From a virus (taxonomy: Duplodnaviria; Caudoviricetes), in IMG/VR virus record IMGVR_UViG_3300014205_000177, positions 113,805-177,804 of that record: a DNA stretch of 64,000 bases; one strand, 5' to 3'. The notes under the pieces were generated by a model, which was not told where the DNA came from, did no database searches, and was given only the letters and a program-made list of their open reading frames with translations. Shown piece by piece: positions 28,316-47,163 of the stretch; position 1 is the stretch's first letter; each line of letters opens with the position of its first letter. The position numbers were made by a program, and so were the translations under genes.

Positions 28316-31300
28316 TTAATTCCAGAATCCCCCAGCTAATGATTGAGGTTTGTTAATGTTTTCTAAATAATTATATGCTAAATCATGCCCTATTAACACA
28401 GCACTATATCTATCTTTTCTTTGTTTTTTCTGTGGAGTGTCCCAATGCATCCTTCCAGAACCAGGTGTTAAGGTCACAACAATGTTTTGTATTTCATTCA
28501 TTGTTTCTAATATTTGTTTATACATTAGTTCATCTTCAGTGCTTTCTTCATCATGACAATTTGTTAATAATCCTTTTTCACATGGGAATAATAAAGTACC
28601 ATTTTGTAAAGAAAGTAATAAATTATGATTTGCATTGTGAACCCATTCATATCTTGAAAATTCTACTAATTCAAGCATTCTATTGCCTTTCATAAATCTA
28701 TGTTCTTCAAATCCCCTTTGTAGAATAGGAGTTTCTCCAACAGACAATGTTTTGGAATCTGCCAATAAGTCTCTTATAGTTTGACCCCCTCCTCCTGAAT
28801 CCATTGCAAATTCAGTTATATTATATTCTTTTATAAGATTTCTTATTTCTCTATGCATAACAGGATATGGTTGTTTATTATAGGCTAAAACTCTTTTAAG
28901 TTTTATTAGTCTTTTTGCTATATCAATTGTAAATATGGCAATTGCAAAATTATCACCATTACGAGCTGGGTCTATACCCATTACATTTACAAAACCTGAT
29001 TGTTTAGCAAGTGATTTTTCACATGAAAATGAATAATGTAACTGTGATTTATCGAGAAGTGAACGTTGAAAGAAACCATCTGAGTCAGCAGGAAAATAAT
29101 TTTCATATTCCATTCTAAATTGATAGTCTGGCATATTTAACTTTGCTTCATCAATAGAACTTCTGTTCATAAATCCTTCTGGATAATCATTATGTGTAAA
29201 TGCTACTAAAGCCCTGTTATTATCTTTCATTATATTATAAGGTATTTGAGGACCAGATTCATTACCTCTTAATTCTATACCTTGTAAATCTTCTGGTATT
29301 TCTTGATTATTATTAAATAATTTAATATATCTATCTTGTTTTTCCATAATTGAATCAATATAACTCTTAACAGAAACCCAAAAATGATTATATTGATAAT
29401 AAGAAGTAGAAGAAAGAACTATTTTATTACTATATAATTTTTCTATTTTATTAATTTTACCTAAAGCTAAAAGTTTCTTTTGTTCTTCTATAAATCTTAC
29501 TTGTTCCATTGGGTTTTTAGAAGTTGCCATCATACCACGAATAACTACATCTAAAACTTCCTTATTTACCTGAGCTACTTCGTCTACAATAACAGTAAAA
29601 AAACGAGCACCACGAATTGTTCCCCCGTCACCTATAGGTAACGCTTGAATAACAGAGCCTGGTTTATTGCATACTGATTTAAATTGGAGATAGCACATAT
29701 CTGTCATTTTAGTAGGTTTCTTTTCACAACAATCTCTTAAAAGAAGAGATGTTTCATATATTCTTTCTATTTCAGAAAAAACAAATTTTGACTGACGAAA
29801 AGATGCACCAAATATACCAACTTTTTCGCCAGGAAATAGTAATGCTCTTAAAATTGCAAATACAGCATCAATAAAAGTATTGTGAGATATAAATCCATTG
29901 GATATAAAAGTATGGTCGTCTGGAATATGAACATCGTAAGTATGCTCTTCTGGAAGAATTTCTTTCTCTACAACAATATCAAAAAAGTAATTTTTTTCTG
30001 ATATATCTTTTAACTTTTTCCAATTTTCGCTATCACTGCAATCCTTAGTTAACTCTAAAAATTCATTTAAAAATCTATAAGATGGATTGTATTCTAATAG
30101 GTGAGTATTCTGCAATAACGTTCTTGATTTTCTATCTAGTTTATATTCCACCTTGTTTTTTAAGTAATCATTTTTCACAGAAATAAGAATATCCGATAGG
30201 AAAGGAATCACATCCTTATTGGGATTGAATTTTTTATTCAGCAATAACGTCTCAAGTTTGTCTTGTTTCCTATTACATTTAAATCCTATCTTTTCTGCAA
30301 AAATTTTTGCTGAATTTGAATATATAAACAATCTCCATGAATCTCTTCTTGATTCAATTCCTTTGTAAATATATTTTACCGACTTATAATGGATAGAAGA
30401 AATAATTCCAAAAGATAAAAGAACCACCTGAAGTTGTTTTAATAGTTTTTCAGAACATGATGAAAACTCAACCCCTCTATCAGTAACACTTCCATCGGTA
30501 TCTGCATATCCAGAAATAAATGATGCCAATACTTTTTTATTTGATTGTAGTATTGACTCTGGTATTTCTTTTTCTTTTGATTTTACTTTTTTAAGCTTGT
30601 ATTTACTAAAGAATTCTTTATCTCTATAAGCTCCTCCGAAATTCAAACTAAATTCTATTTTATCCTTTAGTTCTGAAAACTTACAAGCTCCTAGTTTTTT
30701 ATAATTTTCTCTGAAAATATTTATTATGTCTTCATCTGTATTGGTAAATCCAACCCCTCCGGATTTTACAAAGCATCCATCGCCAATTAATGCTCCAATC
30801 ATATATCCTTCTATTTCTGATATCCAGTTAAATTCTCCGCTGAATTCATACTTATCATCCCTATTAATGACTACATAATCTCCAATTTTTATATCATCAT
30901 TTCTTTTCCATGTAATATTTCCATTTTCAAAACATCTAATCATGTGCTTGTCTACTGATTTTATTTCGTAGCCGTGACAAGTTCTTGTTCTGTAAATTTG
31001 TTTTGGTTCGTTTTTGTATGTGTGCGATGTATTTTTGAATCCGTTTTCTCCATACATTTGGATTACACTCTCTTTAAGTCCAAACTCTTCTGATTTGTGA
31101 AGTCCTGCTATTTCATGGAATCCACTATTGAGAAGACACATAGAGTCTCCAACTATGCATTTACCAGAACCACGGGACAAAACCATAATCACATTATTAC
31201 AGTCCCACATTGCTCTAAGTGCAATTCTTTGATGTGGAGCAAGGTCAATACCAAGTAAATCCCTTGCTGCTGCTGCTGGGTCTTCTTTATAAATTCTTAC

Positions 31301-31345
31301 CATCTCCATTAATTGAATATCGTCTTCTGCAAAATTCTGTATCAT
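28316..31345 (-). CDS. terL: Terminase large subunit with intein
   Basis: Walker A SRGSGK(T), Walker B VIVDE, nuclease GIDPAR...MDSGGGG...KDRYSA. Confidence 0.93.
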   Translation of the reverse strand: MIQNFAEDDIQLMEMVRIYKEDPAAAARDLLGIDLAPHQRIALRAMWDCNNVIMVLSRGSGKCIVGDSMCLLNSGFHEIAGLHKSEEFGLKESVIQMYGENGFKNTSHTYKNEPKQIYRTRTCHGYEIKSVDKHMIRCFENGNITWKRNDDIKIGDYVVINRDDKYEFSGEFNWISEIEGYMIGALIGDGCFVKSGGVGFTNTDEDIINIFRENYKKLGACKFSELKDKIEFSLNFGGAYRDKEFFSKYKLKKVKSKEKEIPESILQSNKKVLASFISGYADTDGSVTDRGVEFSSCSEKLLKQLQVVLLSFGIISSIHYKSVKYIYKGIESRRDSWRLFIYSNSAKIFAEKIGFKCNRKQDKLETLLLNKKFNPNKDVIPFLSDILISVKNDYLKNKVEYKLDRKSRTLLQNTHLLEYNPSYRFLNEFLELTKDCSDSENWKKLKDISEKNYFFDIVVEKEILPEEHTYDVHIPDDHTFISNGFISHNTFIDAVFAILRALLFPGEKVGIFGASFRQSKFVFSEIERIYETSLLLRDCCEKKPTKMTDMCYLQFKSVCNKPGSVIQALPIGDGGTIRGARFFTVIVDEVAQVNKEVLDVVIRGMMATSKNPMEQVRFIEEQKKLLALGKINKIEKLYSNKIVLSSTSYYQYNHFWVSVKSYIDSIMEKQDRYIKLFNNNQEIPEDLQGIELRGNESGPQIPYNIMKDNNRALVAFTHNDYPEGFMNRSSIDEAKLNMPDYQFRMEYENYFPADSDGFFQRSLLDKSQLHYSFSCEKSLAKQSGFVNVMGIDPARNGDNFAIAIFTIDIAKRLIKLKRVLAYNKQPYPVMHREIRNLIKEYNITEFAMDSGGGGQTIRDLLADSKTLSVGETPILQRGFEEHRFMKGNRMLELVEFSRYEWVHNANHNLLLSLQNGTLLFPCEKGLLTNCHDEESTEDELMYKQILETMNEIQNIVVTLTPGSGRMHWDTPQKKQRKDRYSAVLIGHDLAYNYLENINKPQSLAGGFWN
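29879..31159 (-). mobile_element. 427 aa intein with LAGLIDADG homing endonuclease in TerL
   Basis: Starts CIVGDS, ends NGFISHN, followed by Thr; GALIGDG and SGYADTDG motifs. Confidence 0.93.
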
Positions 31346-35661: not shown

Positions 35662-36243
35662 TTATACTCCTATTGCTCTTACCGGAAAGAGGTCATCTTC
35701 CTCAGTTTTATTTTTTATACTTATATTTTTTATATTTAATATTTTTTCTTCATCAACTTTTCCACATAATATAGCAATATTTATTCCACCATTTTTATTG
35801 TAATTATCATTTTTAGCAGAACGTTTTGCTCCTAAATTATTTCTATATTGACTTTCCCTCCTTTTGCTATTAGATAGCTCTGCATCAGAATCTCCGCTTG
35901 GTTTTTTCTTTAATGCTCTATATTGCATAATCTTTTCTAATGCTAAGTTATTAATATCTTCAATATCTTCTACATTATTCCAATCAGGATGGGCTTCCAC
36001 CCACTTCTTAACTTCATCAATATATATTTTAAATTCTATAGGATTTAATGTCATAGCCGCTATTACAGAAACTTTACCATCTAGACATTCTGGAATTTTA
36101 TTTTTACCATGAATTATGTCTGATGTTTTATTTGATATCTGTATTTCTTTTTTATTACAAATACTTACATCTTCAAAAAATTTTTTAGACATTTCTTCTG
36201 GGTTTTTAATCCCTATACTATTTATATTGTCATTTTTATCCAT
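35662..36243 (-). CDS. Hypothetical protein, possible terminase small subunit
   Basis: 193 aa helical ORF upstream of the packaging genes; position only. Confidence 0.4.
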   Translation of the reverse strand: MDKNDNINSIGIKNPEEMSKKFFEDVSICNKKEIQISNKTSDIIHGKNKIPECLDGKVSVIAAMTLNPIEFKIYIDEVKKWVEAHPDWNNVEDIEDINNLALEKIMQYRALKKKPSGDSDAELSNSKRRESQYRNNLGAKRSAKNDNYNKNGGINIAILCGKVDEEKILNIKNISIKNKTEEDDLFPVRAIGV

Positions 36244-36297
36244 TTAAAAACCTTTTTCTTAATTATTCTATATTAAAAAAAAATAAAAAACACCAAT

Positions 36298-36894
36298 TTA
36301 GAATTTTTTATCAGTCTTAATTCTTTTCCTCATTCTATTAAGTATCGCACTTACAGCTGACGGGTAACTATAGTTTAATTTTTCTGATATTTCTCTTTGG
36401 GTTATTTTGGGATTTTCGAATATCAATTTTAATACATTTTTTTCGTTTTCTTTTAAATAACATTCTGGTGAATTATCATCAATCATTAGTCTTAAATTTT
36501 TTATTCTTTCTTCATCAAAACTCTTTTTTTCTGATTCTTCACAATTAGAATCTATAAAAGGGAAATCTTTCATGAATAAATCTTCTCCAGAAAAAACATA
36601 TGATTTATATTTTTGATATTTTATGCAGTTATGTTGTACAAGATTTGATATACAACGGAAGGCAAATACTGAAAATTTAACACCTTTTGATGGGTCATAT
36701 TTTGGAATTATTTTTTCTATAACGAAAAGACACGAATTTTGAAATATATCTTCTTTTTCTTCTTTTGGGATATTGTTATATCTGTGAATTATTGACCAAA
36801 TCATTGGTTCAATACTTTTTAACATCAATTCATTTTTTTTATCAACTACCTTCTCTTTCTCCATTTTCAACTCCACTTCCTGTCGTAAAGACAA
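36298..36894 (-). CDS. Sigma70-family RNA polymerase sigma factor
   Basis: EDIFQ...KYDPSKGVKFSVFAFRCI (region 2); ITQREISEKL HTH. Confidence 0.8.
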   Translation of the reverse strand: MSLRQEVELKMEKEKVVDKKNELMLKSIEPMIWSIIHRYNNIPKEEKEDIFQNSCLFVIEKIIPKYDPSKGVKFSVFAFRCISNLVQHNCIKYQKYKSYVFSGEDLFMKDFPFIDSNCEESEKKSFDEERIKNLRLMIDDNSPECYLKENEKNVLKLIFENPKITQREISEKLNYSYPSAVSAILNRMRKRIKTDKKF

Positions 36895-37048
36895 TTTTTA
36901 ATTCTATTGTTTGAAAGGAAGTAGAATCTTGATTAGATTGTGTTCCAACACATCCCATATATTGAATTAAGCTTTCTTTGTTTATACTGTTAAGTATTTC
37001 TAAAATAGAGCTAAATGGTACTATATTACCATCAACTATGTTTACCAT
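36842..37048 (-). CDS. Hypothetical protein
   Basis: ATG 37048 with GGAGG RBS. Confidence 0.5.
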   Translation of the reverse strand: MVNIVDGNIVPFSSILEILNSINKESLIQYMGCVGTQSNQDSTSFQTIELKIVFTTGSGVENGEREGS

Positions 37049-37208
37049 TCTCAACCTCCTCTTTAATGCTTGCAAGGGTTCTTTGAAATTCTTTCTTCTC
37101 CTTGCTTCCGCATTTTGGACAAATGTTGGAGTCTGTATAAATATTTTTACATTTTATACATGTGAATGTTTTTTTATAAATTTTACCAGTAGTCTTTTGA
37201 TATTCCAT
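37032..37208 (-). CDS. Small Zn-ribbon protein, 58 aa
   Basis: Translated by hand: MEYQKTTG...CIKC...CPKCGS; GAGGT RBS. Confidence 0.6.
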   Translation of the reverse strand: MEYQKTTGKIYKKTFTCIKCKNIYTDSNICPKCGSKEKKEFQRTLASIKEEVENGKHS

Positions 37209-37209
37209 T

Positions 37210-37431
37210 TTAACCTCTTGTTGACCTTAAAATTAGGTCTAAATCTTTTATCCCTATTACAAATCTAACATCAATTCCAGGGATTGTTAACAATAATGAA
37301 TCTGTAGAAATTTCGGTAGGATATGTACCATCTGCAAAAATATTATTGTCTTCTGCTTTTGATAATTCTAGTTCAGTATTTTGACAATTTCCATTCTCTA
37401 TTGCAACACACTTAATATTAAATCTTACCAT
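37210..37431 (-). CDS. Hypothetical protein
   Basis: 73 aa; AAGGAG RBS; TGcTATAAT promoter just upstream on the minus strand. Confidence 0.65.
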   Translation of the reverse strand: MVRFNIKCVAIENGNCQNTELELSKAEDNNIFADGTYPTEISTDSLLLTIPGIDVRFVIGIKDLDLILRSTRG

Positions 37432-37689
37432 AAAATCTCCTTGTTATAAAACATATTATAGCATAAATAAATAATATTTCAATTTTTTTAAATAAAATAC
37501 TTGACATTTTTATTGAACATGCTTCACTTTTATTTTTAAGGATAAACTTTAAACATTTTGTTTTATAAATCTATACAACAATGTTATAATCAAATTTTAA
37601 CTACATAGAACGAACGCTATTTAATTTTTTGTTAAGATATGACTCTTTGCCCATTATTGTTGTTTTGGTGGTCTTATTTTTCTTTTATT

Positions 37690-38025
37690 TGATTCTAGTT
37701 AATACTTTACTAGTTTATTTATCTAGTAATTATATTTACCAGTATAAATTACTTACTAGTATAATCTTCTAGTATACTTTCTTTATTGGACTATGCTATT
37801 TAGTGCGTGTATGTGATTATACTAGATAAGTATACCGCACATTACACGTTATTACTAACTAGTTAATTAATTATACTAGTTAATACACAAACTAATATAG
37901 TATTCACGTTAATACGTTACTAGTAATTCTCTGATGTATTAAACTAGTAAAGTATTCACGCACACACGCACGATTATAATAATATATTAATTAATTACTA
38001 GTATTCACGTATGTGCGCACGTAAG
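37690..38025. repeat. AT-rich non-coding region with clustered ACTAGT palindromes
   Basis: ACTAGT at 37709, 37755, 37858, 37875, 37919, 37943, 37997; AGTATTCACG three times. Confidence 0.75.
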
Positions 38026-38088
38026 GATAATTAATAAAAAAACTAAAACATTAATTTTAAAAAAAATTGAAAAAAAATAAAACTTTGT

Positions 38089-38116
38089 TTGTTTTTATTT
38101 GGTTTTATGCTATAAT
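38089..38116 (+). promoter_or_regulatory. Extended -10 promoter of tRNA array 1
   Basis: TTGTTT-N16-TATAAT with TGC; same motif at 39313, 43185, 44551, 46866, 50144. Confidence 0.75.
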
Positions 38117-38159
38117 ATAAAACAGAAACAAAAATAATTTAAAAATGGTGATATTAAAA

Positions 38160-38237
38160 ATGAGAACAATGCAAGATATGACAGTGGCGACAGCCAATAC
38201 CAATCCGGAGAATTCTCCAGTGTGGTACGTCTCTTAG
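38160..38237 (+). CDS. Attenuator leader peptide 1 (MRTMQDMTVATANTNPENSPVWYVS)
   Basis: GGTGA RBS; codons match array 1 tRNAs; 3' end overlaps the antiterminator strand. Confidence 0.8.
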   Translation: MRTMQDMTVATANTNPENSPVWYVS

Positions 38238-38266
38238 TCTTTGTTTTTATTTGTAAATAATGATTT

Positions 38267-38297
38267 AAGAGCGAACCCTAAAAAGTTCGCTTTTTTG
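38267..38297 (+). terminator. Attenuator terminator 1
   Basis: AGCGAAC/GTTCGCT stem plus T-run; alternative pairing with 38224-38237. Confidence 0.8.
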
Positions 38298-38324
38298 TTG
38301 ATTGAAAACTTAATATAATAAAAT

Positions 38325-38417
38325 GCTAGTGTGGCTGAGTGGTCTAAAGCAGCGCACCTGTAATGCGCCGAGTTCATATCAATGGCTCCGTGGGTTCAAA
38401 TCCTACCACTAGCTCCA
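38325..38417 (+). tRNA. tRNA-Thr(UGU), atypical (C33, long variable arm)
   Basis: Acceptor GCTAGTG/CACTAGC, stem GCGCA/TGCGC, loop CCTGTAA, CCA; a Tyr reading needs a broken stem. Confidence 0.7.
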
Positions 38418-38497
38418 GTCTTCCGGCTTCGTAAAAACGAATATAATAACATAGCAATATGTGAAGCGGATATTCCCAGCCGGTTTTATTTTAGAAT

Positions 38498-38575
38498 GGG
38501 GCAATAGCTCAGTTGGCTTAGAGCATCTCGCTTGCACCGAGAAGGTCCAGGGTTCAATTCCCTGTTGTTCCACCA
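38498..38575 (+). tRNA. tRNA-Ala(UGC)
   Basis: Cloverleaf, loop CTTGCAC, G3:U70, CCA. Confidence 0.93.
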
Positions 38576-38583
38576 TTTTACGT

Positions 38584-38661
38584 TGGCTAGTAGCTCAGTT
38601 GGTAGTAAGCGTTCGCCTGTTAAGCGAAAGGTCGCACGTTCGAACCGTGCCTAGCCAGCCA
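38584..38661 (+). tRNA. tRNA-Asn(GUU)
   Basis: Loop CTGTTAA, CCA. Confidence 0.92.
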
Positions 38662-38709
38662 ATTTTATTAACAATGTGTGTTAATATTATTCTAGTTTAA
38701 AATAATTTT

Positions 38710-38795
38710 TGCAGGGATAAGTCTCGGAAGACTGGTAAGGCTCATAACCTTATGCGGAAACGCTGAGTGGGTTCGACTCTCCACCCCTGCTACCA
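38710..38795 (+). tRNA. tRNA-Met(CAU), initiator-like, extra variable hairpin
   Basis: Loop CTCATAA; 1:72 mismatch; GCGGAAACGC V-arm. Confidence 0.75.
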
Positions 38796-38863
38796 TTTCT
38801 CTACCAGAGGTAGGGATATTATAAAGGGTTATCGCTGTCCCCGTCTGACGAAACAGCGAACGT

Positions 38864-38939
38864 GGCTCGTATGGATAATGGCTATCCACAAGTATCATAA
38901 ACTTGTTTAAGGTGGGTTCGATTCCCCCACGAGCTACCA
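38864..38939 (+). tRNA. tRNA with CAU anticodon (Met or Ile2)
   Basis: Stem CAAGT/ACTTG, loop ATCATAA, CCA. Confidence 0.75.
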
Positions 38940-38948
38940 ATTTAAAAC

Positions 38949-39024
38949 GGGGATGTAGCTCAATTAGGAGAGCATCGGTCTGTCGAACCGAAGGTCGTGG
39001 GGGCAGAACCCATCATCCTCGCCA
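38949..39024 (+). tRNA. tRNA-Asp(GUC)
   Basis: Loop CTGTCGA, G73, CCA. Confidence 0.9.
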
Positions 39025-39032
39025 TTTTATAT

Positions 39033-39109
39033 GCTCGGTTAGCTCAATTGGCTAGAGCACTTGGTTTACACCCAAGTTGTTACAGATTCGAGTTCTGTAC
39101 CGAGTACCA
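39033..39109 (+). tRNA. tRNA-Val(UAC)
   Basis: Loop TTTACAC, CCA. Confidence 0.92.
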
Positions 39110-39118
39110 GTTTTATAT

Positions 39119-39208
39119 GGGGAGGTAGCTCAGAGGCAGAGCGTCGGGCTAGGTGGTGAAAACCACCGAATCTGAAGGTCGCTGGTTCGAATCCAGCCTT
39201 CCCCACCA
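39119..39208 (+). ncRNA. tRNA-like RNA with a hairpin inserted in the anticodon loop
   Basis: Intact acceptor, D and T arms and CCA; loop reads CTA-GGTGGT-GAAA-ACCACC-GAA. Confidence 0.8.
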
Positions 39209-39213
39209 GTTTC

Positions 39214-39287
39214 GTTGCGAGATAATATAATTTTTAGTACCCCATTGTGGATGGGAAATGTTGGTGAAAATCCAACTCTCGCAACCA
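39214..39287 (+). tRNA. tRNA-His(GUG), degenerate
   Basis: G-1, loop TTGTGGA; D-loop lacks GG; T-loop atypical. Confidence 0.55.
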
Positions 39288-39312
39288 TTTTTTAAAAAAA
39301 TAGAAAAGTAAT

Positions 39313-39340
39313 TTGTTTTTGAAGTAAATTATGCTATATT
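39313..39340 (+). promoter_or_regulatory. Internal promoter in tRNA array 1
   Basis: TTGTTT-N16-TATATT with TGC. Confidence 0.6.
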
Positions 39341-39431
39341 TTAAAGTATAAGAAAGTTGTTGGATAATTACCAACTGAACTCTGAGGTTATGGGAATATC
39401 AGAGAGAGATTAACAAATAACCCGTACATAT

Positions 39432-39505
39432 CAGAGCGTGAGATAATGGTAGTCGTCCTTCCTTGGAAGAAGGGGGTGGTCGTTCGAATCGACCCGCTCT
39501 GACCA
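39432..39505 (+). tRNA. tRNA-Pro(UGG)
   Basis: C1:G72, loop CTTGGAA, CCA. Confidence 0.9.
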
Positions 39506-39555
39506 TTTTAAATTTAACCATAGTGGTTTAAATAAAAAATAACATAGGAAAAGTT

Positions 39556-39762
39556 ATGGAAGAAGATTTAATTCCTGAAATTTGGGAAAACGGAAAGGGG
39601 AGAACAAAACCCTTTGTAAAAAGTAAGAAAAACAATTATGAAGAACCCAAAAAAAGATTTGGGATAATTGGTAAGAAAAAAGTAAAAGAAAATAGAGAAC
39701 TTCAAGATATAGATGAAGTAGAAGATAAAATAAGTTCTTCTATACTTAGTAAAATTAAATAA
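39556..39762 (+). CDS. Small Lys-rich hypothetical protein
   Basis: 68 aa; AGGA RBS. Confidence 0.6.
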   Translation: MEEDLIPEIWENGKGRTKPFVKSKKNNYEEPKKRFGIIGKKKVKENRELQDIDEVEDKISSSILSKIK

Positions 39763-39767
39763 TATGT

Positions 39768-39843
39768 GTCCGGTTCTTCTAGTTGGACAGGATAAGGGAC
39801 CTTCACTCCCTCGACACGGGTTCGAATCCCGTACCGGATACCA
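39768..39843 (+). tRNA. tRNA-Glu(UUC), C33
   Basis: Stem AGGGA/TCCCT, loop CCTTCAC, CCA. Confidence 0.85.
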
Positions 39844-39846
39844 TAA

Positions 39847-39922
39847 AGCCCTGAAGTGTAACGGCTGCACACTTGTCTTTGACACAAGTAGACTTATGGT
39901 TCAACTCCATGCAGGGCTGCCA
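39847..39922 (+). tRNA. tRNA-Gln(UUG)
   Basis: Loop CTTTGAC, G73, CCA. Confidence 0.88.
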
Positions 39923-39930
39923 GTTTTCGA

Positions 39931-40005
39931 GTTCCCTTAATTCAGAGGAAGAAATTATCGGTCCTAACGATAAAGTCGCTGGTTCAAGTCCAGCAGGGAA
40001 CGCCA
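39931..40005 (+). tRNA. tRNA-Arg(CCU)
   Basis: Stem TATCG/CGATA, loop GTCCTAA, CCA. Confidence 0.82.
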
Positions 40006-40019
40006 GTTTTGTTTTATGT

Positions 40020-40052
40020 GTGCCAGTAGCTGAGAGGATAGAGCAGTGGTTT
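40020..40052 (+). pseudogene. tRNA 5'-half remnant
   Basis: GTGCCAG-TAGCTGAGAGGATAGAGCA-GTGGTTT stops at the anticodon loop, just before the endonuclease gene. Confidence 0.6.
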
Positions 40053-40123
40053 AAATTAAATATTTAAGATTGACGTGTGTTCGATTCAATGTTTCGATGG
40101 TATTATATAAAAAGGAGTTTTAT

Positions 40124-41102
40124 ATGAAAGCCATTGAAATAGATTGGAAATTAGTTCAGGAATACCATAATAATGAGCACTGCTTGAGTGATGTCATGAA
40201 AAATTTTAAGGTTTCAAGAGCATCCATAGATACAGCGGTAAAACATGGATGCTTTGTTAAAAAATATTTTAAACAAGAACACACTGAGGAAACAAAGAAG
40301 GCAATATCTGAAAAAAGGAAAAAATGGTTGGCAGACAATCCAGATAAACATGTATGGAAAAGGAAGGGAAAATTCAAATCTGAACCATGCGAAGTATTAA
40401 AGAAAAAAACTTGAAGAAAATGGAGTTAGTTTTTATCCAGAATTTTCACCAATAGAAAGCCATTCATTCTCTTTAGATATAGCTTTTCCAAAAGATAAGT
40501 TTGGCATAGAAATAAATGGAAACCAGCACTATGAAAGAGACGGTAGACTAAAGGATTATTATCAGAAACGACATGATTTAATCGTTGCAGATGGTTGGGA
40601 ACTATTGGAAATACCTTGTGCTATGGTTTGGAACAAGGAGTTTATTGATGGTTTAATAGAATCACTTAAAACTAAGGTCTGCGGTTTTGAGTATAAAGAA
40701 CAAGTGGAAGAATATAATAAAAAGAAAAGAGAAAAGTATATTTGCCCGACTTGTGACAATAGAAAGAGCAAAAACTCGATGCTTTGTAGAAAGTGTTCTT
40801 TTAAGCCGAAAGTAAAAAAGCAAGTAGTCAGAATTTTTGTAAATAAAAACCATATGTGTCCGAATTGTAAAAACGCTAAAGATGCAAAAGCGGTTTTATG
40901 TAAGGAATGCTTTAGTTTGTCAAAGAGGAAAGTTGAAAGACCAAATAAGGAAGAGTTGGAAAAATTGGTCAAAGAGTTATCGATGACTAAGATAGGCAAG
41001 ATGTTCGGAGTTAGCGACAATGCCGTAAAAAAATGGTGTAAAATTTATGAAATAGAATTAGGAGACAGACGAGGGTACTGGGCAAAGATTTATGCAAGGT
41101 GA
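40124..41102 (+). pseudogene. Frameshifted Vsr/DUF559-like homing endonuclease (NUMOD3-like, nuclease, Zn fingers, HTH)
   Basis: Removing one A from the A7 run at 40403-40409 joins both ORFs through LDIAFP...IEINGNQH...GWELL. Confidence 0.75.
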
Positions 41103-41110
41103 TTTAACAT

Positions 41111-41185
41111 GGTCTCATAGCTTAACGGATAAAGTTCGTGTCTTCTAAACACGCCATTCGGGTTCAATTCCCGATGAGACCTCCA
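41111..41185 (+). tRNA. tRNA-Arg(UCU)
   Basis: Stem CGTGT/ACACG, loop CTTCTAA, CCA. Confidence 0.88.
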
Positions 41186-41206
41186 ATTTTAAAAAAGGAA
41201 TTTTTT

Positions 41207-41464
41207 ATGAAAAGAGCTAGACCTATTTACTCACTAGGGCAGTATTATAGAAACAGGGGCACTCATAAACGAGAAGAAGCAATAAGCGAAGACGAAGAAC
41301 ATAGTCCATTAACTAGAGCCAAGAGAGAATCAAATTTACCTGACTCTTGGGATACAAAAAAGATTTGCAGACCTAAGACATGGAAGAGGAGATGCAAGAA
41401 AGCAAAACAGTGGATGAAACATTTTATGACAGATTTAGAAAAGAAATTTATAAGAGGAGAATAA
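41207..41464 (+). CDS. Basic hypothetical protein
   Basis: ATG 41207 with AAGGA RBS; RAKR..LPDSWD...WK motif. Confidence 0.7.
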   Translation: MKRARPIYSLGQYYRNRGTHKREEAISEDEEHSPLTRAKRESNLPDSWDTKKICRPKTWKRRCKKAKQWMKHFMTDLEKKFIRGE

Positions 41465-41467
41465 ACG

Positions 41468-41572
41468 ATGAGTGGAAAAGGATGTAAGAGAAGACCTCAA
41501 CAGATAAGCGAAGAAAAAATGCAAAGCAATTGGGAAAAAGCATTTAACAAAGGAAATAAAAAGAAAAAATGA
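41468..41572 (+). CDS. Small phage protein (MSGKGCKRRP...NWEKAF)
   Basis: 34 aa; GAGGAG RBS; ATGA overlap with the next gene. Confidence 0.65.
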   Translation: MSGKGCKRRPQQISEEKMQSNWEKAFNKGNKKKK

Positions 41573-42156
41573 GTGAAGTATTGGTTTTAAACAAGCTATG
41601 GCAACCAGTTAAAGTTATTAACGTATGGGATGCAATTTGCAAAGTATATCAAGATAAAGCTTCTTTTTTAGATGCTAATTATGTTATGCATAATTGGGAA
41701 TCTTGGGTTATATCATGGAAAGATGCAGAAATTCATGCAAAAGATATGATACATGGTTCATCTTGTTCTATTAGAAAACCAACTGTAATTGTTTTAAAAA
41801 ACTACAGTGGGTATGTTTTTAAAAAACCAAAGATGAGTAGGCGTAACATTTACTTAAGGGATGCAAACCAGTGCCAATATTGTGGTATAACATACGAAAC
41901 AAAGAAACTAAATATAGACCATATTATACCTAAATCTCATGGGGGAAGAACTCAATGGACTAATGTAGTAGTTTCATGTATAAAATGTAATAGTTTTAAA
42001 GCAGATAGAACTCCTGAACAGGCAGGAATGAAACTTTTAAGAAAGCCAAAAGCTCCTACCTGGAAAGATGTTAACATGGAAGCTTTTCAAAGAAATTATT
42101 CTAATTGGCACGGTCTGTTAAATGACATGTACTGGAATGTTACTTTAGAAAAATAG
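41569..42156 (+). CDS. HNH endonuclease (McrA-like)
   Basis: VLVLN...RD..CQYCG...DHIIPKSHGG...N...C..CN..K. Confidence 0.9.
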   Translation: MSEVLVLNKLWQPVKVINVWDAICKVYQDKASFLDANYVMHNWESWVISWKDAEIHAKDMIHGSSCSIRKPTVIVLKNYSGYVFKKPKMSRRNIYLRDANQCQYCGITYETKKLNIDHIIPKSHGGRTQWTNVVVSCIKCNSFKADRTPEQAGMKLLRKPKAPTWKDVNMEAFQRNYSNWHGLLNDMYWNVTLEK

Positions 42157-42235
42157 AATTATAAGATTGACAAATAAAAAAAAGATGCTATACTTAATAA
42201 GTGTAGCATTTTTTATATATAAATAAGGAGATAAA

Positions 42236-42622
42236 ATGAGTGAAAAAATTGTAATGGGTAAAATGTTTTCTATTGAAAATAAAAACAAAAAAACCGGTGA
42301 AAATGAAAAATACATAGCCGTTTATGTAGAAGACGAAAGCGGAAATGAAGAAACCGAAAGGTGCTTACTATTTACGGAAATAGAGCTTTCCGACATGGAA
42401 AAAGTTGTACTTCCATTTGTTAAGAATACAATGAAAAAAGGAAGAATTTATTCTGTTATTATAGACAAAAAAGAAACAAATCTTTTAAAAGTAGAAACAG
42501 AACGTAATGGAAATATTATTTTTAGGGTTTCTAATTCTCAACTTAAATCGGCAGAAGAAAGGGTTAAAAGAAATCCAGAAGATGTTGAAAAGAAAGATTT
42601 TATAACTGATTTACTTGACTAA
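42236..42622 (+). CDS. Hypothetical protein
   Basis: 128 aa; AAGGAG RBS; promoter upstream. Confidence 0.75.
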   Translation: MSEKIVMGKMFSIENKNKKTGENEKYIAVYVEDESGNEETERCLLFTEIELSDMEKVVLPFVKNTMKKGRIYSVIIDKKETNLLKVETERNGNIIFRVSNSQLKSAEERVKRNPEDVEKKDFITDLLD

Positions 42623-42631
42623 CAAGGAAAT

Positions 42632-42865
42632 ATGATGAAATTAAAAATAAAATGTCCAGAATGTAAAAGGGAACATCTTGTCACTATATCAAATGAACAA
42701 CCTATTATGGAAATTAAAAAGATAAAATGTTTATCTTGTAGTATAATTATAAAATATAGAATAGGAATAAAAAAAGAAAATACCAGTGATAGTTCTTCTA
42801 AACTTTTTGATAGTATGGGAATGTTTGGAGATGTTTTTAAAAATATTATGGGGAGTAAAAGATGA
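42632..42865 (+). CDS. Zn-ribbon protein
   Basis: CPEC...CLSC. Confidence 0.65.
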   Translation: MMKLKIKCPECKREHLVTISNEQPIMEIKKIKCLSCSIIIKYRIGIKKENTSDSSSKLFDSMGMFGDVFKNIMGSKR

Positions 42866-43188
42866 TAGGTACAATAGAAGTGGTAAATAAATATACATAT
42901 GAAGGTGATTATATAGATATAATGAGAGGAACTCCACTTGGTAATCCATATATAGTTTCTGATTCAATGAGCAGAGAACAATCAGTTTTAAATTTTTATA
43001 AATATTTCAGAAAAGAATTTTTTAAAAAAACAGATGTATATAATGCAATAATGGAGATAGTTGAAAAGGTTAAGTCTGGAGAAAATGTAAAAATTAAATG
43101 TTGTTGTAAACCAAAATTATGCCATGGCGATATTATAAAAATTGCAATAGAAAGTATTTTAGAAAAACAAATTAGAAATAATACTTGA
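42862..43188 (+). CDS. DUF4326-like protein
   Basis: IMRGTPLGNPY...CCCKPKLCHGDII. Confidence 0.8.
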   Translation: MIGTIEVVNKYTYEGDYIDIMRGTPLGNPYIVSDSMSREQSVLNFYKYFRKEFFKKTDVYNAIMEIVEKVKSGENVKIKCCCKPKLCHGDIIKIAIESILEKQIRNNT

Positions 43189-43343
43189 TTTTTAAAAATA
43201 TTATGCTATAGTTAATATTATAAAATTTCTTATTATGAGAAATTAAAAAAAAGAGGTAAAAAATGATGTAGAATAATAAATCTCCATAACGTGTTTCTTT
43301 GTTTTAATGATTTTAATAATAATAATAAACAAAGGAGAGTATA
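43185..43343 (+). promoter_or_regulatory. Promoter, amber-interrupted leader and RBS-sequestering hairpin
   Basis: TTGATT-N16-TATAGT; GAGGT RBS; ATG ATG TAG AAT AAT AAA TCT CCA TAA at 43263-43289; 43294-43304 pairs with 43327-43337. Confidence 0.65.
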
Positions 43344-43718
43344 ATGAATACTTTAAGAAACACGAACGAAGAAGTAATAGATTTGAAGAAAGAGGAATAT
43401 AAGAAGAATATTAAAAGGATGAAGGCTAACGTTAAACTGGTGTCAAATAACATAAAAGAAATGAAAGAAGAATTAAAGACTAAGCAAAAAAAAGGTGATT
43501 ATAAAAGTTGGTCTTTAATGAGTGATTTAAATTCTTATAAAAATGATGTCAGAAATACACATATAGCTTATGCTATGGCAAAAGGGAGAGTCTACCAAAA
43601 AATTGAGTCAAAAGTTAGAGATAACAATGAACCAAACTGGTGGGCAATAAAGGCAAATATAGAAAATTTCTTCGGAAAGAAATTTGAAATTGTTGACTTC
43701 AAGGTAAACTTTCTATGA
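43344..43718 (+). CDS. Hypothetical protein upstream of Pth2-like gene
   Basis: 124 aa; RNTHIAYAMAKGRVYQKIE motif. Confidence 0.75.
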   Translation: MNTLRNTNEEVIDLKKEEYKKNIKRMKANVKLVSNNIKEMKEELKTKQKKGDYKSWSLMSDLNSYKNDVRNTHIAYAMAKGRVYQKIESKVRDNNEPNWWAIKANIENFFGKKFEIVDFKVNFL

Positions 43719-44017
43719 AAAAGGTATTTATAATAACCAGGAAAGACCTTGAAAATGGAGCAAGAATAGTTCAGTCTGTTCATTCATTCCATGAGTTGGC
43801 AAGAAAAAATGAAGAAATATTGAATCAGGTATATAATACAATATGTTACAAAATAGAAGACGAACTATCATTAAAAGAAGTTTCTGAGAGGATAGCAAGT
43901 AATCTAAACGAAAAAGAATATGCATGGTTCAGAGAAACAGATTACAATAATCAATTGACCTCTTTTGCAGTCTTTACAAACAAGAAAGAGCTGTTTAAAG
44001 GTTTAAGATTGGCGTAA
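43715..44017 (+). CDS. Peptidyl-tRNA hydrolase 2-like protein
   Basis: IITRKDL..GARIVQSVH...FRETDYNNQLTSFA...LF..LRL pattern. Confidence 0.7.
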   Translation: MKKVFIITRKDLENGARIVQSVHSFHELARKNEEILNQVYNTICYKIEDELSLKEVSERIASNLNEKEYAWFRETDYNNQLTSFAVFTNKKELFKGLRLA

Positions 44018-44021
44018 TAAA

Positions 44022-44051
44022 TAGGGAGGAGTAAATCCTCCCATTATTTTA
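44022..44051 (+). terminator. Intrinsic terminator
   Basis: GGGAGGA/TCCTCCC stem with T-rich tail. Confidence 0.65.
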
Positions 44052-44067
44052 TAAAAAATGGAGAAAA

Positions 44068-44538
44068 ATGAGCAATAAAGAAAATTATTTTTTAGACCTA
44101 GCACTTAGAAGTGCTCATCAAGGTTCCTGTACAAGAAGAAACTACGGAGCAATTATAGTAAACGAGAAAAAGCATATAGTAGCAACTGGTTATACAGGAA
44201 ATGTATCAGGAGAAGAGCACTGTAATAGTCTTGGAATTTGCTGGAGAAAAGAGAATAATATTCCAAGTGGAACCTCCTACGAACGCTGTAAATCAATACA
44301 TGCCGAACAGAATGCGTTAATTCAAGCCGGTAAAGAATCTTATGGTTCTGTAATATATATTGCCGGATATGATGTAGAAACAGGAAGGGAAATAGCTGGT
44401 ATACCTTGCTTTATTTGTGCAAAACTAATTGTTAATGCTGGAATATCTTCTATTATATATAGAGATACATCTTTAGTGTTCAGGAAGGGTCCAGTTGCCC
44501 ATTATCGTGAACTAGAAAGAAAAATATTTGGAAAATAA
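44068..44538 (+). CDS. dCMP deaminase (ComEB-like)
   Basis: HAEQNA and PCFIC zinc motifs. Confidence 0.88.
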   Translation: MSNKENYFLDLALRSAHQGSCTRRNYGAIIVNEKKHIVATGYTGNVSGEEHCNSLGICWRKENNIPSGTSYERCKSIHAEQNALIQAGKESYGSVIYIAGYDVETGREIAGIPCFICAKLIVNAGISSIIYRDTSLVFRKGPVAHYRELERKIFGK

Positions 44539-44550
44539 TAGTTTATGGTG

Positions 44551-44578
44551 TTGTTTTTTTATAAAGTAATGCTATAAT
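44551..44578 (+). promoter_or_regulatory. Promoter of tRNA array 2
   Basis: TTGTTT-N16-TATAAT with TGC. Confidence 0.75.
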
Positions 44579-44718
44579 ATAATCAACAGCCACCGATATA
44601 GAAATATACGGTAATGTATAGCTCATCTGCCAGGTGTAGAGTGAGTTTCCGAGAATGACGATGACAAAATTCAAAGTTGTTCTCCGTTTTTAAAAAAAAA
44701 TAAAAGGAATTATATTAA

Positions 44719-44790
44719 ATGATGAACGTTTTTAAAAAGATTAGTTTTGGTCGTTGGGGTTTTAAACCTCACGTCCGTCTATTCTTGTAA
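44719..44790 (+). CDS. Attenuator leader peptide 2 (MMNVFKKISFGRWGFKPHVRLFL)
   Basis: AAGGA RBS; codons match all 8 array 2 tRNAs. Confidence 0.82.
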   Translation: MMNVFKKISFGRWGFKPHVRLFL

Positions 44791-44816
44791 CGTTTATCGT
44801 TAGTTGTTGGAGAAGT

Positions 44817-44850
44817 AGGCGGACTAGAAATAGTTCGCCTTTTTGTTTTT
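44817..44850 (+). terminator. Attenuator terminator 2
   Basis: AGGCGGACTA-GAAA-TAGTTCGCCT plus TTTTGTTTTT; alternative pairing with 44773-44785. Confidence 0.85.
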
Positions 44851-44852
44851 AT

Positions 44853-44928
44853 GGGTTGATAGCAAACGTGGTCAATGCATACCGTTGAAGCCGGTACTAC
44901 TTCGGTTCAATTCCGAATCAACCCACCA
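44853..44928 (+). tRNA. tRNA-Phe(GAA)
   Basis: Loop TTGAAGC, CCA. Confidence 0.88.
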
Positions 44929-44938
44929 GTTTATGTGA

Positions 44939-45029
44939 GCAAGGTTGTCTTAGCGGCTTGAGAAACCGACTTTTAATCGGTCAGAGGGTAATGCCTCGTA
45001 GGTGGGTTCGACTCCCACACCTTGCACCA
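44939..45029 (+). tRNA. tRNA-Lys(UUU) with long variable arm
   Basis: Stem ACCGA/TCGGT, loop CTTTTAA, V-arm GAGG/CCTC, CCA. Confidence 0.82.
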
Positions 45030-45040
45030 TTTTATAGTAT

Positions 45041-45125
45041 GCGTCGATGTCATAGCGGTTGTGAGGCTGACTCTTAATCAGTGAGAGAAATCTCTAGGTG
45101 GGTTCAACTCCCACTCGGCGCACCA
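45041..45125 (+). tRNA. tRNA-Lys(CUU) with long variable arm
   Basis: Loop CTCTTAA, V-arm GAGA-GAAA-TCTC, CCA. Confidence 0.82.
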
Positions 45126-45137
45126 AGTTTTTTGTGT

Positions 45138-45211
45138 ATGTCTATAGTTCAATAGTAGAACGGGAGTCTCCAAAACTCTTGACGAGGGGGCAGTACCTTC
45201 TAGACATGCCA
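45138..45211 (+). tRNA. tRNA-Trp(CCA)
   Basis: Loop CTCCAAA, G73, CCA. Confidence 0.88.
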
Positions 45212-45220
45212 GTTTTATAT

Positions 45221-45296
45221 GCGCTGTTAGCTCAGTTGGAAGAGCCCAAAAATACGAATTTTGAGGTCGGGGATTCGAATTCTCCACGGCGCACCA
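45221..45296 (+). tRNA. tRNA-Arg(ACG)
   Basis: Stem CAAAA/TTTTG, loop ATACGAA, CCA. Confidence 0.88.
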
Positions 45297-45303
45297 TTTT
45301 CAT

Positions 45304-45379
45304 TGGCGTATCATATAACGGTCAATTATGTGAGACTGATATTCTCATCACCAAGGTTCAACTCCTTGTACGCCAACCA
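45304..45379 (+). tRNA. tRNA-Ile(GAU)
   Basis: Loop CTGATAT, CCA. Confidence 0.87.
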
Positions 45380-45388
45380 GTTATACAT

Positions 45389-45464
45389 ATTCGGTTAGTT
45401 TAGCGGCTAGAACAATACGTTGACATCGTATAAATCATGGGTTCGATTCCCATACCGAATACCA
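45389..45464 (+). tRNA. tRNA-Val(GAC)
   Basis: Loop TTGACAT, CCA. Confidence 0.88.
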
Positions 45465-45472
45465 GTTTTCAT

Positions 45473-45546
45473 GCGAATATAGTACAGTAGCAGTATTTGA
45501 CGTTGCCAACGTTAGGACGAGGGTGCAATTCCCTCTATTCGCACCA
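45473..45546 (+). tRNA. tRNA-Gly(GCC)
   Basis: Loop TTGCCAA, CCA. Confidence 0.85.
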
Positions 45547-45610
45547 TTTTTTGCAACGAAAAATATAATCTTTATGTTGCAAAACCAAGATATTGTGCTA
45601 TACTATCAAT

Positions 45611-45734
45611 GGCGGTTTAGAGAAAGGTTCATCGCCCTCTAACAAGGGAGGGATTGCAGTAGATTCACCGTGGAAGAAAAGTACATCAGTGAAGGAACCA
45701 ATCCAATGTTTTTTCGATAAAACAATCGCCACCA
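45611..45734 (+). ncRNA. Structured RNA with tRNA-like ends
   Basis: GGCGGTT/AATCGCC-A-CCA; T-arm-like GTTTT-TTCGAT-AAAAC; promoter just upstream. Confidence 0.55.
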
Positions 45735-45792
45735 TTTGACATTTATAAAAATCATGCTATTGTACCTCAACAAACTAAAAAGGAGATATGCA

Positions 45793-46191
45793 ATGTGTAT
45801 CAAAATCAAGGCGATGGAAAATGGAGTAATGATTCAAAGCAGAGAAGAATATGAAGATATAATGGATATTCTATTGGATGCAGGTCTTCGGACAGTGAGT
45901 GGAAAATATTTTGGAGAATGTGACTGGTTTAATGAAACCGGAACCGAAACAGTTATAGATTTGAGAAATCTGGAGTCTATTGCATATGGTGAATATCAGT
46001 ATTTTATTGATAATGATATCCCGGTTTGTAATTTCCAGGATTTTCTTACAGAACAGGGTTTAACACCAAACGGATGCATTAGCGGTGAACAACAGATATT
46101 TATGCGTAGGGCAAAGTTGAAATGTCCAAAAATGAAAAAGAAAGAAATCAGAAGACTTGCAAAGGCAATCGTGAGGGAGATGAACAAATGA
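45793..46191 (+). CDS. Hypothetical protein
   Basis: AGGAG RBS; promoter upstream. Confidence 0.7.
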   Translation: MCIKIKAMENGVMIQSREEYEDIMDILLDAGLRTVSGKYFGECDWFNETGTETVIDLRNLESIAYGEYQYFIDNDIPVCNFQDFLTEQGLTPNGCISGEQQIFMRRAKLKCPKMKKKEIRRLAKAIVREMNK

Positions 46192-46769
46192 AAGCAAGAA
46201 CTAAAAAAGAAGTAGTGCAAATAGGATTATTAGTTGATGAGAGTGGTTCTATGTATAGCCTCTCTGGTGATACAATCGGTACGGTTAATGGTTTCATTAA
46301 AGACCAGAAAAAAGTAAAAGGAGAAGCAGAAATAACAATAGCTTCATTTAATGATAACTATAAACTCATTAAAGATAGAGAAGATATCAAAAATATTGAA
46401 GAAATTACCAGCGAAGATTATTCTCCATCTGGAATGACGGCATTATATGATTCTATTATGAAAATAATTTCTTCCATAGAAGAGACAAAAGCTAAAAAAG
46501 CGATAATCGCTATTATTACAGATGGAATGGAAAACTCAAGTATTGAATATAAAGATTCAAGTGTAATTAAAGAAAAAATACAGCAGAAACAAAAAGACGG
46601 GTGGCAGATATTATTTCTAGCTGCAAATATTGACGAAAAGGCAGTGGGTGCAAGTTTCGGAATAAATGCAATGTACACTCAGGCGTTTACTCCTACAGCA
46701 GATGGCGTAATAGGTGCTATGTCATATACATCGAGATGCGTTAGTGATTACAGGGGCAATAATGATTAA
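46188..46769 (+). CDS. vWA-domain protein
   Basis: MIDAS DESGSM, GMTALYD, ITDGMENSS. Confidence 0.88.
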   Translation: MKARTKKEVVQIGLLVDESGSMYSLSGDTIGTVNGFIKDQKKVKGEAEITIASFNDNYKLIKDREDIKNIEEITSEDYSPSGMTALYDSIMKIISSIEETKAKKAIIAIITDGMENSSIEYKDSSVIKEKIQQKQKDGWQILFLAANIDEKAVGASFGINAMYTQAFTPTADGVIGAMSYTSRCVSDYRGNND

Positions 46770-46865
46770 AATAGGGATAACACAGAGAGAGGTGATGCGG
46801 CTTTAGATTTAAAATGGTTGTGTTTATTGGAAATAAATAAAAATCAAAAAAAGTTTTAAAACTAT

Positions 46866-46893
46866 TTGTTTTTATCGAAAGTAATGCTATAAT
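46866..46893 (+). promoter_or_regulatory. Promoter of tRNA array 3
   Basis: TTGTTT-N16-TATAAT with TGC. Confidence 0.75.
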
Positions 46894-46932
46894 ATAGATG
46901 TGTAAGATAAATAAATTAAAAAGGAAATCATC

Positions 46933-47007
46933 ATGAACAAGTTGTTATCAAGTCATTCACTATCGCTCTCATCCTATATAGGATGCGAGATAGGTCTGCT
47001 TTGGTAA
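46933..47007 (+). CDS. Attenuator leader peptide 3 (MNKLLSSHSLSLSSYIGCEIGLLW)
   Basis: AAGGA RBS; Ser/Leu-rich codons match array 3 tRNAs. Confidence 0.82.
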   Translation: MNKLLSSHSLSLSSYIGCEIGLLW

Positions 47008-47034
47008 TACTTTTTAGATATTCCCAGTTTTTAA

Positions 47035-47071
47035 AAAGAGCAGACCGTAAAAAGTCTGCTCTTTGTTTTTG
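47035..47071 (+). terminator. Attenuator terminator 3
   Basis: AAAGAGCAGAC/GTCTGCTCTTT plus GTTTTT; alternative pairing with 46993-47002. Confidence 0.85.
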
Positions 47072-47080
47072 TTGTGATAT

Positions 47081-47155: not shown

Positions 47156-47163
47156 GTTTATAT

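Follow-up and report, generated by a model that had tools for sequence, protein, structure and literature searches.

A large uncultured phage, contig C2, carries transfer RNA (tRNA) genes in arrays on its + strand, and three of these arrays are preceded by the same assembly of a TTGTTT-N16-TATAAT promoter, a short leader open reading frame (ORF) and a terminator; the first of them, unit 1, with its candidate attenuator at 38089-38299, is the subject of this report. All evidence is computational and concerns a window of 64,000 nt, which corresponds to positions 113,805-177,804 of C2 (IMG/VR record IMGVR_UViG_3300014205_000177); coordinates are those of the window unless another record is named. 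The contig is 177,804 bp long, has a GC content of 30% and was binned with a metagenome-assembled genome of 33% GC. Because its first ~123 nt are present again at its end, we regard it as a complete circular or terminally redundant genome of ~177.7 kb, and its gene content (terminase, HNH endonucleases, a sigma-70-like factor, an ORF of 5587 amino acids and at least 27 tRNAs) identifies it as a large phage. The strand skew flips near 37.5-38.1 kb, and from there on about 30 tRNA genes follow on the + strand up to ~50.6 kb.

Directly upstream of the leader ORF of unit 1 lies the promoter P1 (see Table 1), a strong promoter which lies 37 nt before the ORF and has a predicted start near 38123. 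The ORF is short, has its own start codon and is preceded by a ribosome-binding site, the Shine-Dalgarno (SD)-like GGTGAT, which we take to be complementary to the ...GAUCACC... part of the 3' end of 16S rRNA. Between the ORF and the first tRNA gene (38325) there is an intrinsic terminator, composed of AAGAGCGAAC, a loop and GTTCGCTTTT followed by TTGTTG, with a folding energy of -11.2 to -11.7 kcal/mol; the terminator scan and the energy calculation agree here with the initial annotation of this stretch, which had been made from the sequence alone and named a terminator here, with termination near 38295. A gap of 30 nt separates it from the first tRNA. Further downstream, the scan returned no + strand terminator-like site between 38297 and 44024, so that read-through from P1 can extend to the distal Pro, Glu, Gln and Arg tRNA genes. 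The promoter itself recurs: the 12-mer TGCTATAATATA is found in exactly four copies on the + strand of C2, all of them in the tRNA region (38108, 44570, 46885 and 50163), and the first three are part of a TTGTTT-N16-TATAAT promoter followed by an SD site, an ORF of 23-25 codons, a terminator and a tRNA array. A copy with one mismatch, at 37463, faces leftward.

Table 1. Features of the three promoter-leader-terminator-tRNA units of C2 (window positions)
Feature	Position	Strand	Description	Basis
Promoter P1	38089-38116	+	TTGTTT 38089-38094, 16-nt spacer ending in TGC, TATAAT 38111-38116	sequence
SD-like GGTGAT	38146-38151	+	8 nt before ATG 38160	sequence
Leader ORF 1	38160-38237	+	25 codons and TAG (38235-38237); peptide MRTMQDMTVATANTNPENSPVWYVS	
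Region 1	38158-38182	+	5' strand of the long 1:2 hairpin, start codon included	folds
Region 2	38223-38240	+	antiterminator 5' strand; last five codons and stop	RNAduplex
Intrinsic terminator 1 (regions 3 and 4)	38267-38299	+	10-bp stem 38267-38294, 8-nt loop, U-tract	terminator scan
tRNA unit 1	38325-41185	+	tRNAs with small ORFs and endonuclease-like ORFs interspersed	
Unit 1, Thr(tgt), Ala(tgc), Asn(gtt)	38325, 38498, 38584	+		
Unit 1, CAT tRNA-like gene, Met(cat), Asp(gtc), Val(tac)	38711, 38864, 38949, 39033	+		
Unit 1, tRNA body	39119	+	hairpin replacing the anticodon	
Unit 1, His(gtg)-like tRNA	39216	+	weak, 34.9 bits	
Internal promoter	39313-39340	+	variant TTGTTT-N16-TATATT, TGC before TATATT; ahead of Pro, Glu, Gln, Arg	sequence
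Unit 1, Pro(tgg), Glu(ttc), Gln(ttg), Arg(cct), Arg(tct)	39432, 39768, 39847, 39931, 41111	+		
Unit 2	44551-44840	+	promoter 44551-44578, leader ORF 44719-44790, terminator 44817-44840	
Array 2	12 nt after terminator 2	+	Phe, Lys(ttt), Lys(ctt), Trp, Arg(acg), Ile(gat), Val(gac), Gly(gcc)	
Unit 3	46866-47064	+	promoter 46866-46893, leader ORF 46933-47007, terminator 47035-47064	
Array 3	16 nt after terminator 3	+	Gly(tcc), Ser, Cys, Ser, Ile(tat), Ser, His, Leu, Leu, Leu	

The leader RNA of unit 1 can adopt alternative helices. A pairing of 38224-38237 with 38265-38277 that excludes the terminator had been proposed at the outset, and it is real: the best RNAduplex pairing joins 38223-38240 to 38262-38279 with -13.6 kcal/mol (P = 0.025 in comparison to 1000 dinucleotide shuffles). 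Folded alone, with region 1 removed as it would be by a stalled ribosome, the RNA 38218-38297 prefers this antiterminator (-17.4 kcal/mol) over the terminator (-11.7 kcal/mol), and masking of the last three codons by a ribosome abolishes the pairing in the truncated RNA; in silico, antiterminator and terminator are mutually exclusive, and a ribosome that sits on the final codons of the ORF prevents the former. The folding path without a ribosome takes another course. The 1:2 hairpin (38158-38182 with 38224-38252) is present once the RNA is out to 38255-38266, at -30 to -31.6 kcal/mol, and it precedes the emergence of region 3, while the terminator forms at 38290 and beyond; an anti-antiterminator of this kind forms in silico when the leader is untranslated. 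As a whole, the leader 1 fold reaches z = -4.8 relative to shuffled sequences. Under the assumption that a ribosome reaches ~12 nt past its A-site codon, codon 18 is the last stall site that leaves the antiterminator strand (from 38223/38224) free, and it is after codon 18 that the amino acids of the array end and S, W and Y begin. We propose codons 2-18 as the regulatory window of leader 1 and codons 19-25 as the antiterminator strand.

No amino acids other than M, R, T, Q, D, V, A, N, P and E are encoded by codons 1-18 of leader 1, and codons 2-18 specify precisely those ten for which unit 1 has intact tRNAs, the degenerate His being omitted; AGA at codon 2 has its match in the Arg(tct) tRNA at 41111. 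The ORF together with the downstream tRNA calls confirms in this way the initial claim that the leader spells the amino acids of array 1 except His, and gives the element the enrichment in codons tied to the products of the controlled genes that is characteristic of leader-peptide attenuators. As null model we used random in-frame windows from 112 long ORFs of the same contig, with codon-level matches scored under strict wobble rules. A run of at least 17 in-set codons was not found once in 500,000 random windows, and the occurrence of all ten amino-acid types within the 17 codons after the start has P = 7.5e-4. For the whole ORF, the match of leader 1 to its own array gives P = 4e-4 at the amino-acid level and P = 1.7e-3 at the codon level.

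Units 2 and 3 repeat the design with leader peptides MMNVFKKISFGRWGFKPHVRLFL and MNKLLSSHSLSLSSYIGCEIGLLW, respectively. Antiterminators are located at the 3' end of both ORFs (-17.4 kcal/mol with P = 0.023 in unit 2, -18.6 kcal/mol with P = 0.001 in unit 3, both against shuffles), and neither in the gap between terminator and first tRNA nor over the hairpin is there a good sigma-70-type -10/-35 pair in these two units. Because the gaps are that short and no such pair was seen, arrays 2 and 3 are most likely expressed by read-through of their terminators. When each leader was compared with each array, the resulting matrix was sharply diagonal: leader 1 matched array 1 with 17 of its 24 codons and arrays 2 and 3 with 2 each; leader 2 matched array 2 with 15 of 22 codons (P < 5e-6; 0 of 200,000 random windows), array 1 with 3 and array 3 with 4; leader 3 matched array 3 with 15 of 23 codons (P = 1.8e-4) and the other two with 3 each. 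A general preference of phage ORFs for codons served by phage tRNAs is ruled out by this diagonal. The match goes beyond the amino acid. For G, H, I, R and V, tRNAs are present in two or more arrays, and 14 of the 17 leader codons concerned are read only by the leader's own array, among the isoacceptor-specific codons being AGA and GTG in leader 1, CGT, GTT/GTC, ATT and GGT in leader 2, and ATA and GGA in leader 3; CAT in leader 3 can be decoded by its own array but also by a second one. The three exceptions, namely the remaining two codons and CAC of leader 2 (the amino acid of which is unserved by its own array), all sit in the 3' tails which form the antiterminator strand. Since the leader codons track the isoacceptors of their own array, the sequences point to sensing of tRNA species rather than of amino acids.

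Such units are not confined to C2. Starting from a VWA-like protein encoded nearby, we reached, by way of its nearest homologues in IMG/VR, two unrelated huge phages with the same design. One of them, IMGVR_UViG_3300025030_000039 (429 kb, 24% GC), has one unit, in which MKAISVHIIHIWEHLLEEVNINIM and a terminator are followed by His, Glu, Val and Trp tRNAs. The other, IMGVR_UViG_3300044568_003163 (294 kb), has three: the leader MIPTTNININMNFDWAIKFAGNDYVDSNVIRM precedes Phe, Trp, Ile, Val, Ala, Asn, Asp, Asp, Lys and Tyr with a match of 23/31, MRTSSTLSLTSLQHLTRSENSTEV precedes His, Ser, Ser, Arg, Gln, Gln, Thr, Leu, Leu and Leu with a match of 19/23, and a weaker leader containing ...ECPRPEAC... 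stands before Pro, Pro, Arg and Cys. Taking the seven units of the three phages together, the true assignment of leaders to arrays is the best of 5040 permutations at the codon level as well as at the amino-acid level. For the terminator 5' arm, the best partner was located between -9 and +11 nt relative to the stop codon in all seven units; among control arms this held for ~4 of 14. When antiterminator-permissive codons were compared with the others in a Fisher test pooled over the seven units, the difference was not significant (P = 0.42), with a crude classification of codons and two weak units diluting the signal. The leader ORFs of the 429-kb phage differ from those of C2 in having no SD sites, and in the same genome (reverse complement of 320001-396000, positions 22553-22621) we observed a TAG-suppressor tRNA (anticodon CTA), pointing to a recoding of stop codons in this phage.

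We consider it likely, from the sequence, that 38089-38299 is a ribosome-mediated attenuator in the style of trp and ilv, which would give the phage a homeostatic, codon-resolved control of its tRNA supply; promoter, SD site, matched codons, 1:2 hairpin, antiterminator and terminator are all present in the expected order and at suitable distances, which supports the attenuator reading with which this analysis started. We infer that the leader is translated, that transcription ends at the hairpin and that the two are coupled as a switch. Transcription would start at P1 near 38123 and a ribosome would start on the 25-codon leader. With smooth decoding, the ribosome would arrive at the last codons or the TAG and cover region 2, the terminator at 38267-38294 would form, and the transcript would end before the tRNAs. 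If the ribosome stalled at any of codons 2-18, because the matching tRNA was scarce, uncharged or cleaved, it would hold region 1, the 1:2 hairpin could not form, and region 2 would be free to pair with the 5' arm of the terminator; RNA polymerase would then read into Thr, Ala, Asn, Met, Asp and Val and further into Pro, Glu, Gln and Arg, there being no terminator until 44024. A leader that is not translated at all would have its pre-formed 1:2 hairpin, favouring termination. The outcome would be a negative feedback in which slow reading of its own codons triggers the synthesis of each set of tRNAs, any of the ten amino acids being sufficient (OR logic), and C2 probably makes its unit-1 tRNAs only under these conditions.

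The same structural switch could, of course, have amino-acid starvation as its signal and not the abundance or integrity of tRNAs, given that its anatomy is that of the classical attenuators and that a stalled ribosome is blind to the reason why an aminoacyl-tRNA is missing. We hold this to be unlikely: additional tRNA gives no relief of amino-acid starvation, so that the feedback would be pointless, and the discrimination of isoacceptors according to the array that follows would be needless for a sensor of amino acids. A different proposal would be to regard 38123-38297 as a free-standing gene for a small RNA (sRNA) or a micro-protein, with the tRNAs transcribed from a TATAAT at 38314, from the promoter at 39313 or by leaky read-through and with a codon match that has no meaning. 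The unusually good fold of the leader, reminiscent of a structured sRNA, would suit it, as would the position of that TATAAT 6 nt before the first tRNA and the existence of the internal promoter. It is nevertheless a quite improbable explanation, as the match specific to the own array is far beyond chance in three units of C2 and recurs in other phages, a promoter would not fit into the 12-16 nt that separate terminator and tRNA in units 2 and 3, no -35 element stands at a workable distance from the TATAAT at 38314, and an antiterminator is found at the end of the ORF in every unit.

One may also imagine that the leader is translated and codon-matched, and that its effect is post-transcriptional, the ribosome altering the ribonuclease processing or the stability of the tRNA precursor and the hairpin being an element of processing or stability. 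tRNA precursors do require 5' processing, and in all units the hairpin stands 12-30 nt before the first tRNA. The hairpins are, on the other hand, canonical intrinsic terminators with U-tracts (19 terminator-like sites in the terminator scan as compared to 7.6 expected), and a complementary strand exactly at the end of the ORF fits a competition of terminator and antiterminator and is unneeded for processing, which leaves this explanation with very little probability.

Several observations weigh against a homeostatic attenuator. The start codon of leader 1 is ambiguous between 38145 and 38160: an in-frame ATG is present at 38145, which lacks an SD site of its own and is overlapped by GGTGAT, and a start there would add V-I-L-K, three of these four residues lying outside the array set. 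Expression of some tRNAs may be independent of the leader, either from the TATAAT at 38314-38319, which is without a -35 at usable spacing, or from the internal promoter. The latter had been named as a caveat by the initial annotation and is indeed real, with only a 7-codon ORF (MGISERD) behind it and neither a terminator nor a leader of its own; the caveat stands without undoing the match, as Pro, Glu, Gln and Arg codons are present in the leader and read-through from P1 can cover these tRNAs. Several tRNAs of unit 1 are odd (C33, a class-II arm on Thr), so that it is not certain that they serve in decoding. The regulatory codons are present in only 1-4 copies each and not in tandem runs, and the sensitivity to a mild shortage is therefore uncertain. 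Minimum-energy folds of the full-length leader 1 RNA with a 31-nt ribosome mask keep the terminator at every stall position, so that the switch would have to be kinetic, as in trp; since the choice falls before the 3' arm has been synthesised, this kind of folding was abandoned as a test in favour of folds of truncated RNAs and of sub-regions.

Queries of IMG/VR with the sigma-like, the 1051-aa and the 544-aa proteins gave no close relative of C2. Leader DNA gave only short AT-rich chance matches in 166 genomes of the host family; homologues of the 215-aa VWA-like protein in IMG/VR, metagenomes and genomes are at most 44% identical and mostly without tRNA arrays; the terminase/helicase-like protein finds its best matches among cultured phages at only ~27-33% identity, in Herelleviridae; and promoter-pattern scans of IMG/VR returned mostly unrelated small phages. 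The module was not seen upstream of the tRNA arrays of four other IMG/VR phages (G169-G172), nor upstream of those of the Bacillus Herelleviridae phages Mater and Moonbeam, and it is hence not universal. A near-identical relative of the 294-kb phage (L284, IMGVR_UViG_3300043775_002040) has the same leaders in front of reduced arrays: two leader peptides are kept on its reverse strand (4217-4372 and 7459-7599), and several array tRNAs are lost, from which it follows that leader and array can fall out of step over a short evolutionary time.

Leader-peptide attenuators are well known from enterobacteria, where they govern ilvGMEDA (Ile/Leu/Val) and thr (Thr/Ile) and are also represented by trpL, hisL, leuL and pheL. 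The units of C2 share with them a promoter-proximal short ORF rich in regulatory codons, a four-region RNA (1:2, the 2:3 antiterminator and the 3:4 intrinsic terminator) and the predicted logic of termination with the ribosome at the stop codon and read-through after an early stall. The ilvGMEDA and thr leaders can sense more than one amino acid, as those of C2 would, and, together with pheST, come closest to the logic of C2. Here, in contrast, the element is encoded by a phage and would control tRNAs rather than biosynthetic enzymes, it addresses ten amino acids by single scattered codons in place of tandem runs, and its choice of codons follows the isoacceptors. In pheST of E. coli, with its pheM leader, the attenuator belongs to phenylalanyl-tRNA synthetase and answers to how much charged tRNA is available; part of the decoding machinery is governed there, as it would be in C2, but pheST is bacterial and not viral, deals with Phe alone and regulates a synthetase rather than a tRNA. 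T-box riboswitches of Bacillota resemble the predicted phage switch in taking a terminator/antiterminator decision on tRNA status in a 5' leader, and in their low-GC Gram-positive setting. They differ in binding one uncharged tRNA directly, by specifier codon and T-box bulge and without a ribosome, ahead of synthetase and amino-acid genes, whereas in the phage an ORF with an SD site would do the reading. A cmscan search of 36000-51000 (E <= 1) found no match to the Rfam leader families (Trp, His, Leu, Thr) or to the T-box RF00230, and returned only tRNAs and weak chance matches. A full-text literature search found no published report of leader-peptide control of tRNA genes, and what appears to be new, as far as could be found, is the likely application of a known attenuation mechanism to tRNA genes.

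Phage tRNA sets, some of them with altered anticodon loops, have been proposed or shown to replace host tRNAs destroyed in the course of infection (PMC10264068, PMC11555353, PMC12409363). The portions of these papers on which we draw concern the function of phage tRNAs, and mention neither a switching of their transcription nor an upstream sensor of decoding. In C2, too, there are atypical tRNAs, with C33 and unusual arms. One might, tentatively, go a step further and see in the attenuators a phage-borne, codon-resolved sensor of tRNA damage, i.e. an inducible counter-defence made from a bacterial attenuation mechanism, a possibility that we judge rather doubtful. Anticodon nucleases or other tRNA-depleting defences would remove isoacceptors, ribosomes would stall on the matching codon, and the replacement array would be turned on; some array tRNAs with atypical loops or arms (C33, the class-II-shaped Thr and Lys) may resist cleavage.

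The tRNAs themselves deserve some attention. Long paired variable arms, i.e. a class-II shape, are present on Thr(tgt) (38325-38417), Lys(ttt) (44939-45029) and Lys(ctt) (45041-45125); this shape is normally that of Leu, Ser and Tyr tRNAs. The Thr(tgt) tRNA has in addition C33 in place of U33, and a reading of this first tRNA as Tyr(GTA) was rejected, since it breaks the anticodon stem. At 39119-39208 there is a tRNA body (54.6 bits) with a GGTGGT/ACCACC hairpin and GAAAA loop within an insertion of ~15-20 nt in the anticodon loop, for which the sole ARAGORN reading is Arg(acg) with a 15-nt 'intron'. A tRNA-like 5' half (~40018-40060) adjoins two endonuclease-like ORFs (40070-40414 and 40605-41102), and at 48449-48725 the ARAGORN prediction is a tRNA-Leu(taa) interrupted by 191 inserted nt; no group I intron was matched by Rfam in 40006-41102 or 48449-48725.

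Further genes and sites around the arrays may be mentioned. Immediately upstream of promoter 2, a protein of the cytidine/dCMP deaminase fold is encoded at 44068-44538 (Pfam PF00383, E = 6.6e-15), which may be a TadA-like tRNA deaminase, as the tRNA-Arg(ACG) of array 2 needs A34-to-I editing. The fourth exact copy of TGCTATAATATA, at 50163, precedes an ORF of 57 amino acids (50224-50397), the start of which, ATGAGTTACTTCAA, is repeated at 50515; downstream follow a tRNA-like fragment without acceptor stem (50524-50586, 53.9 bits), a terminator (50678-50705) and, in the region to 52294, a 544-aa protein of PHROG-850 ('RNA-binding protein'). The stretch 50163-52294 may be a Ro/Y-RNA-like module; no Pfam match to TROVE was obtained in it. 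Between the leftward operon, with its promoter copy at 37463, and P1 lies a divergent intergenic region of 660 nt (37430-38090), rich in short repeats containing ACTAGT and TATTCACG, which may represent operator sites or an origin. The large terminase (28316-31345) harbours an intein with a LAGLIDADG domain inside.

How phage tRNA genes are controlled, and why large phages carry so many of them, is poorly understood. If the attenuator is what it appears to be, it would be the first attenuation system, as far as could be found, to control tRNA genes themselves, and it would extend attenuation to an OR gate of ten amino acids with isoacceptor resolution. The units are small (~175 nt), self-contained and portable to reporters, and the present example, with its SD sites and a sigma-A-type promoter, should lend itself to assays in standard Bacillota or E. 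coli systems. The ideas that phage tRNAs supplement codon usage or serve in counter-defence would then become directly testable, since each predicts which depletion opens which array.

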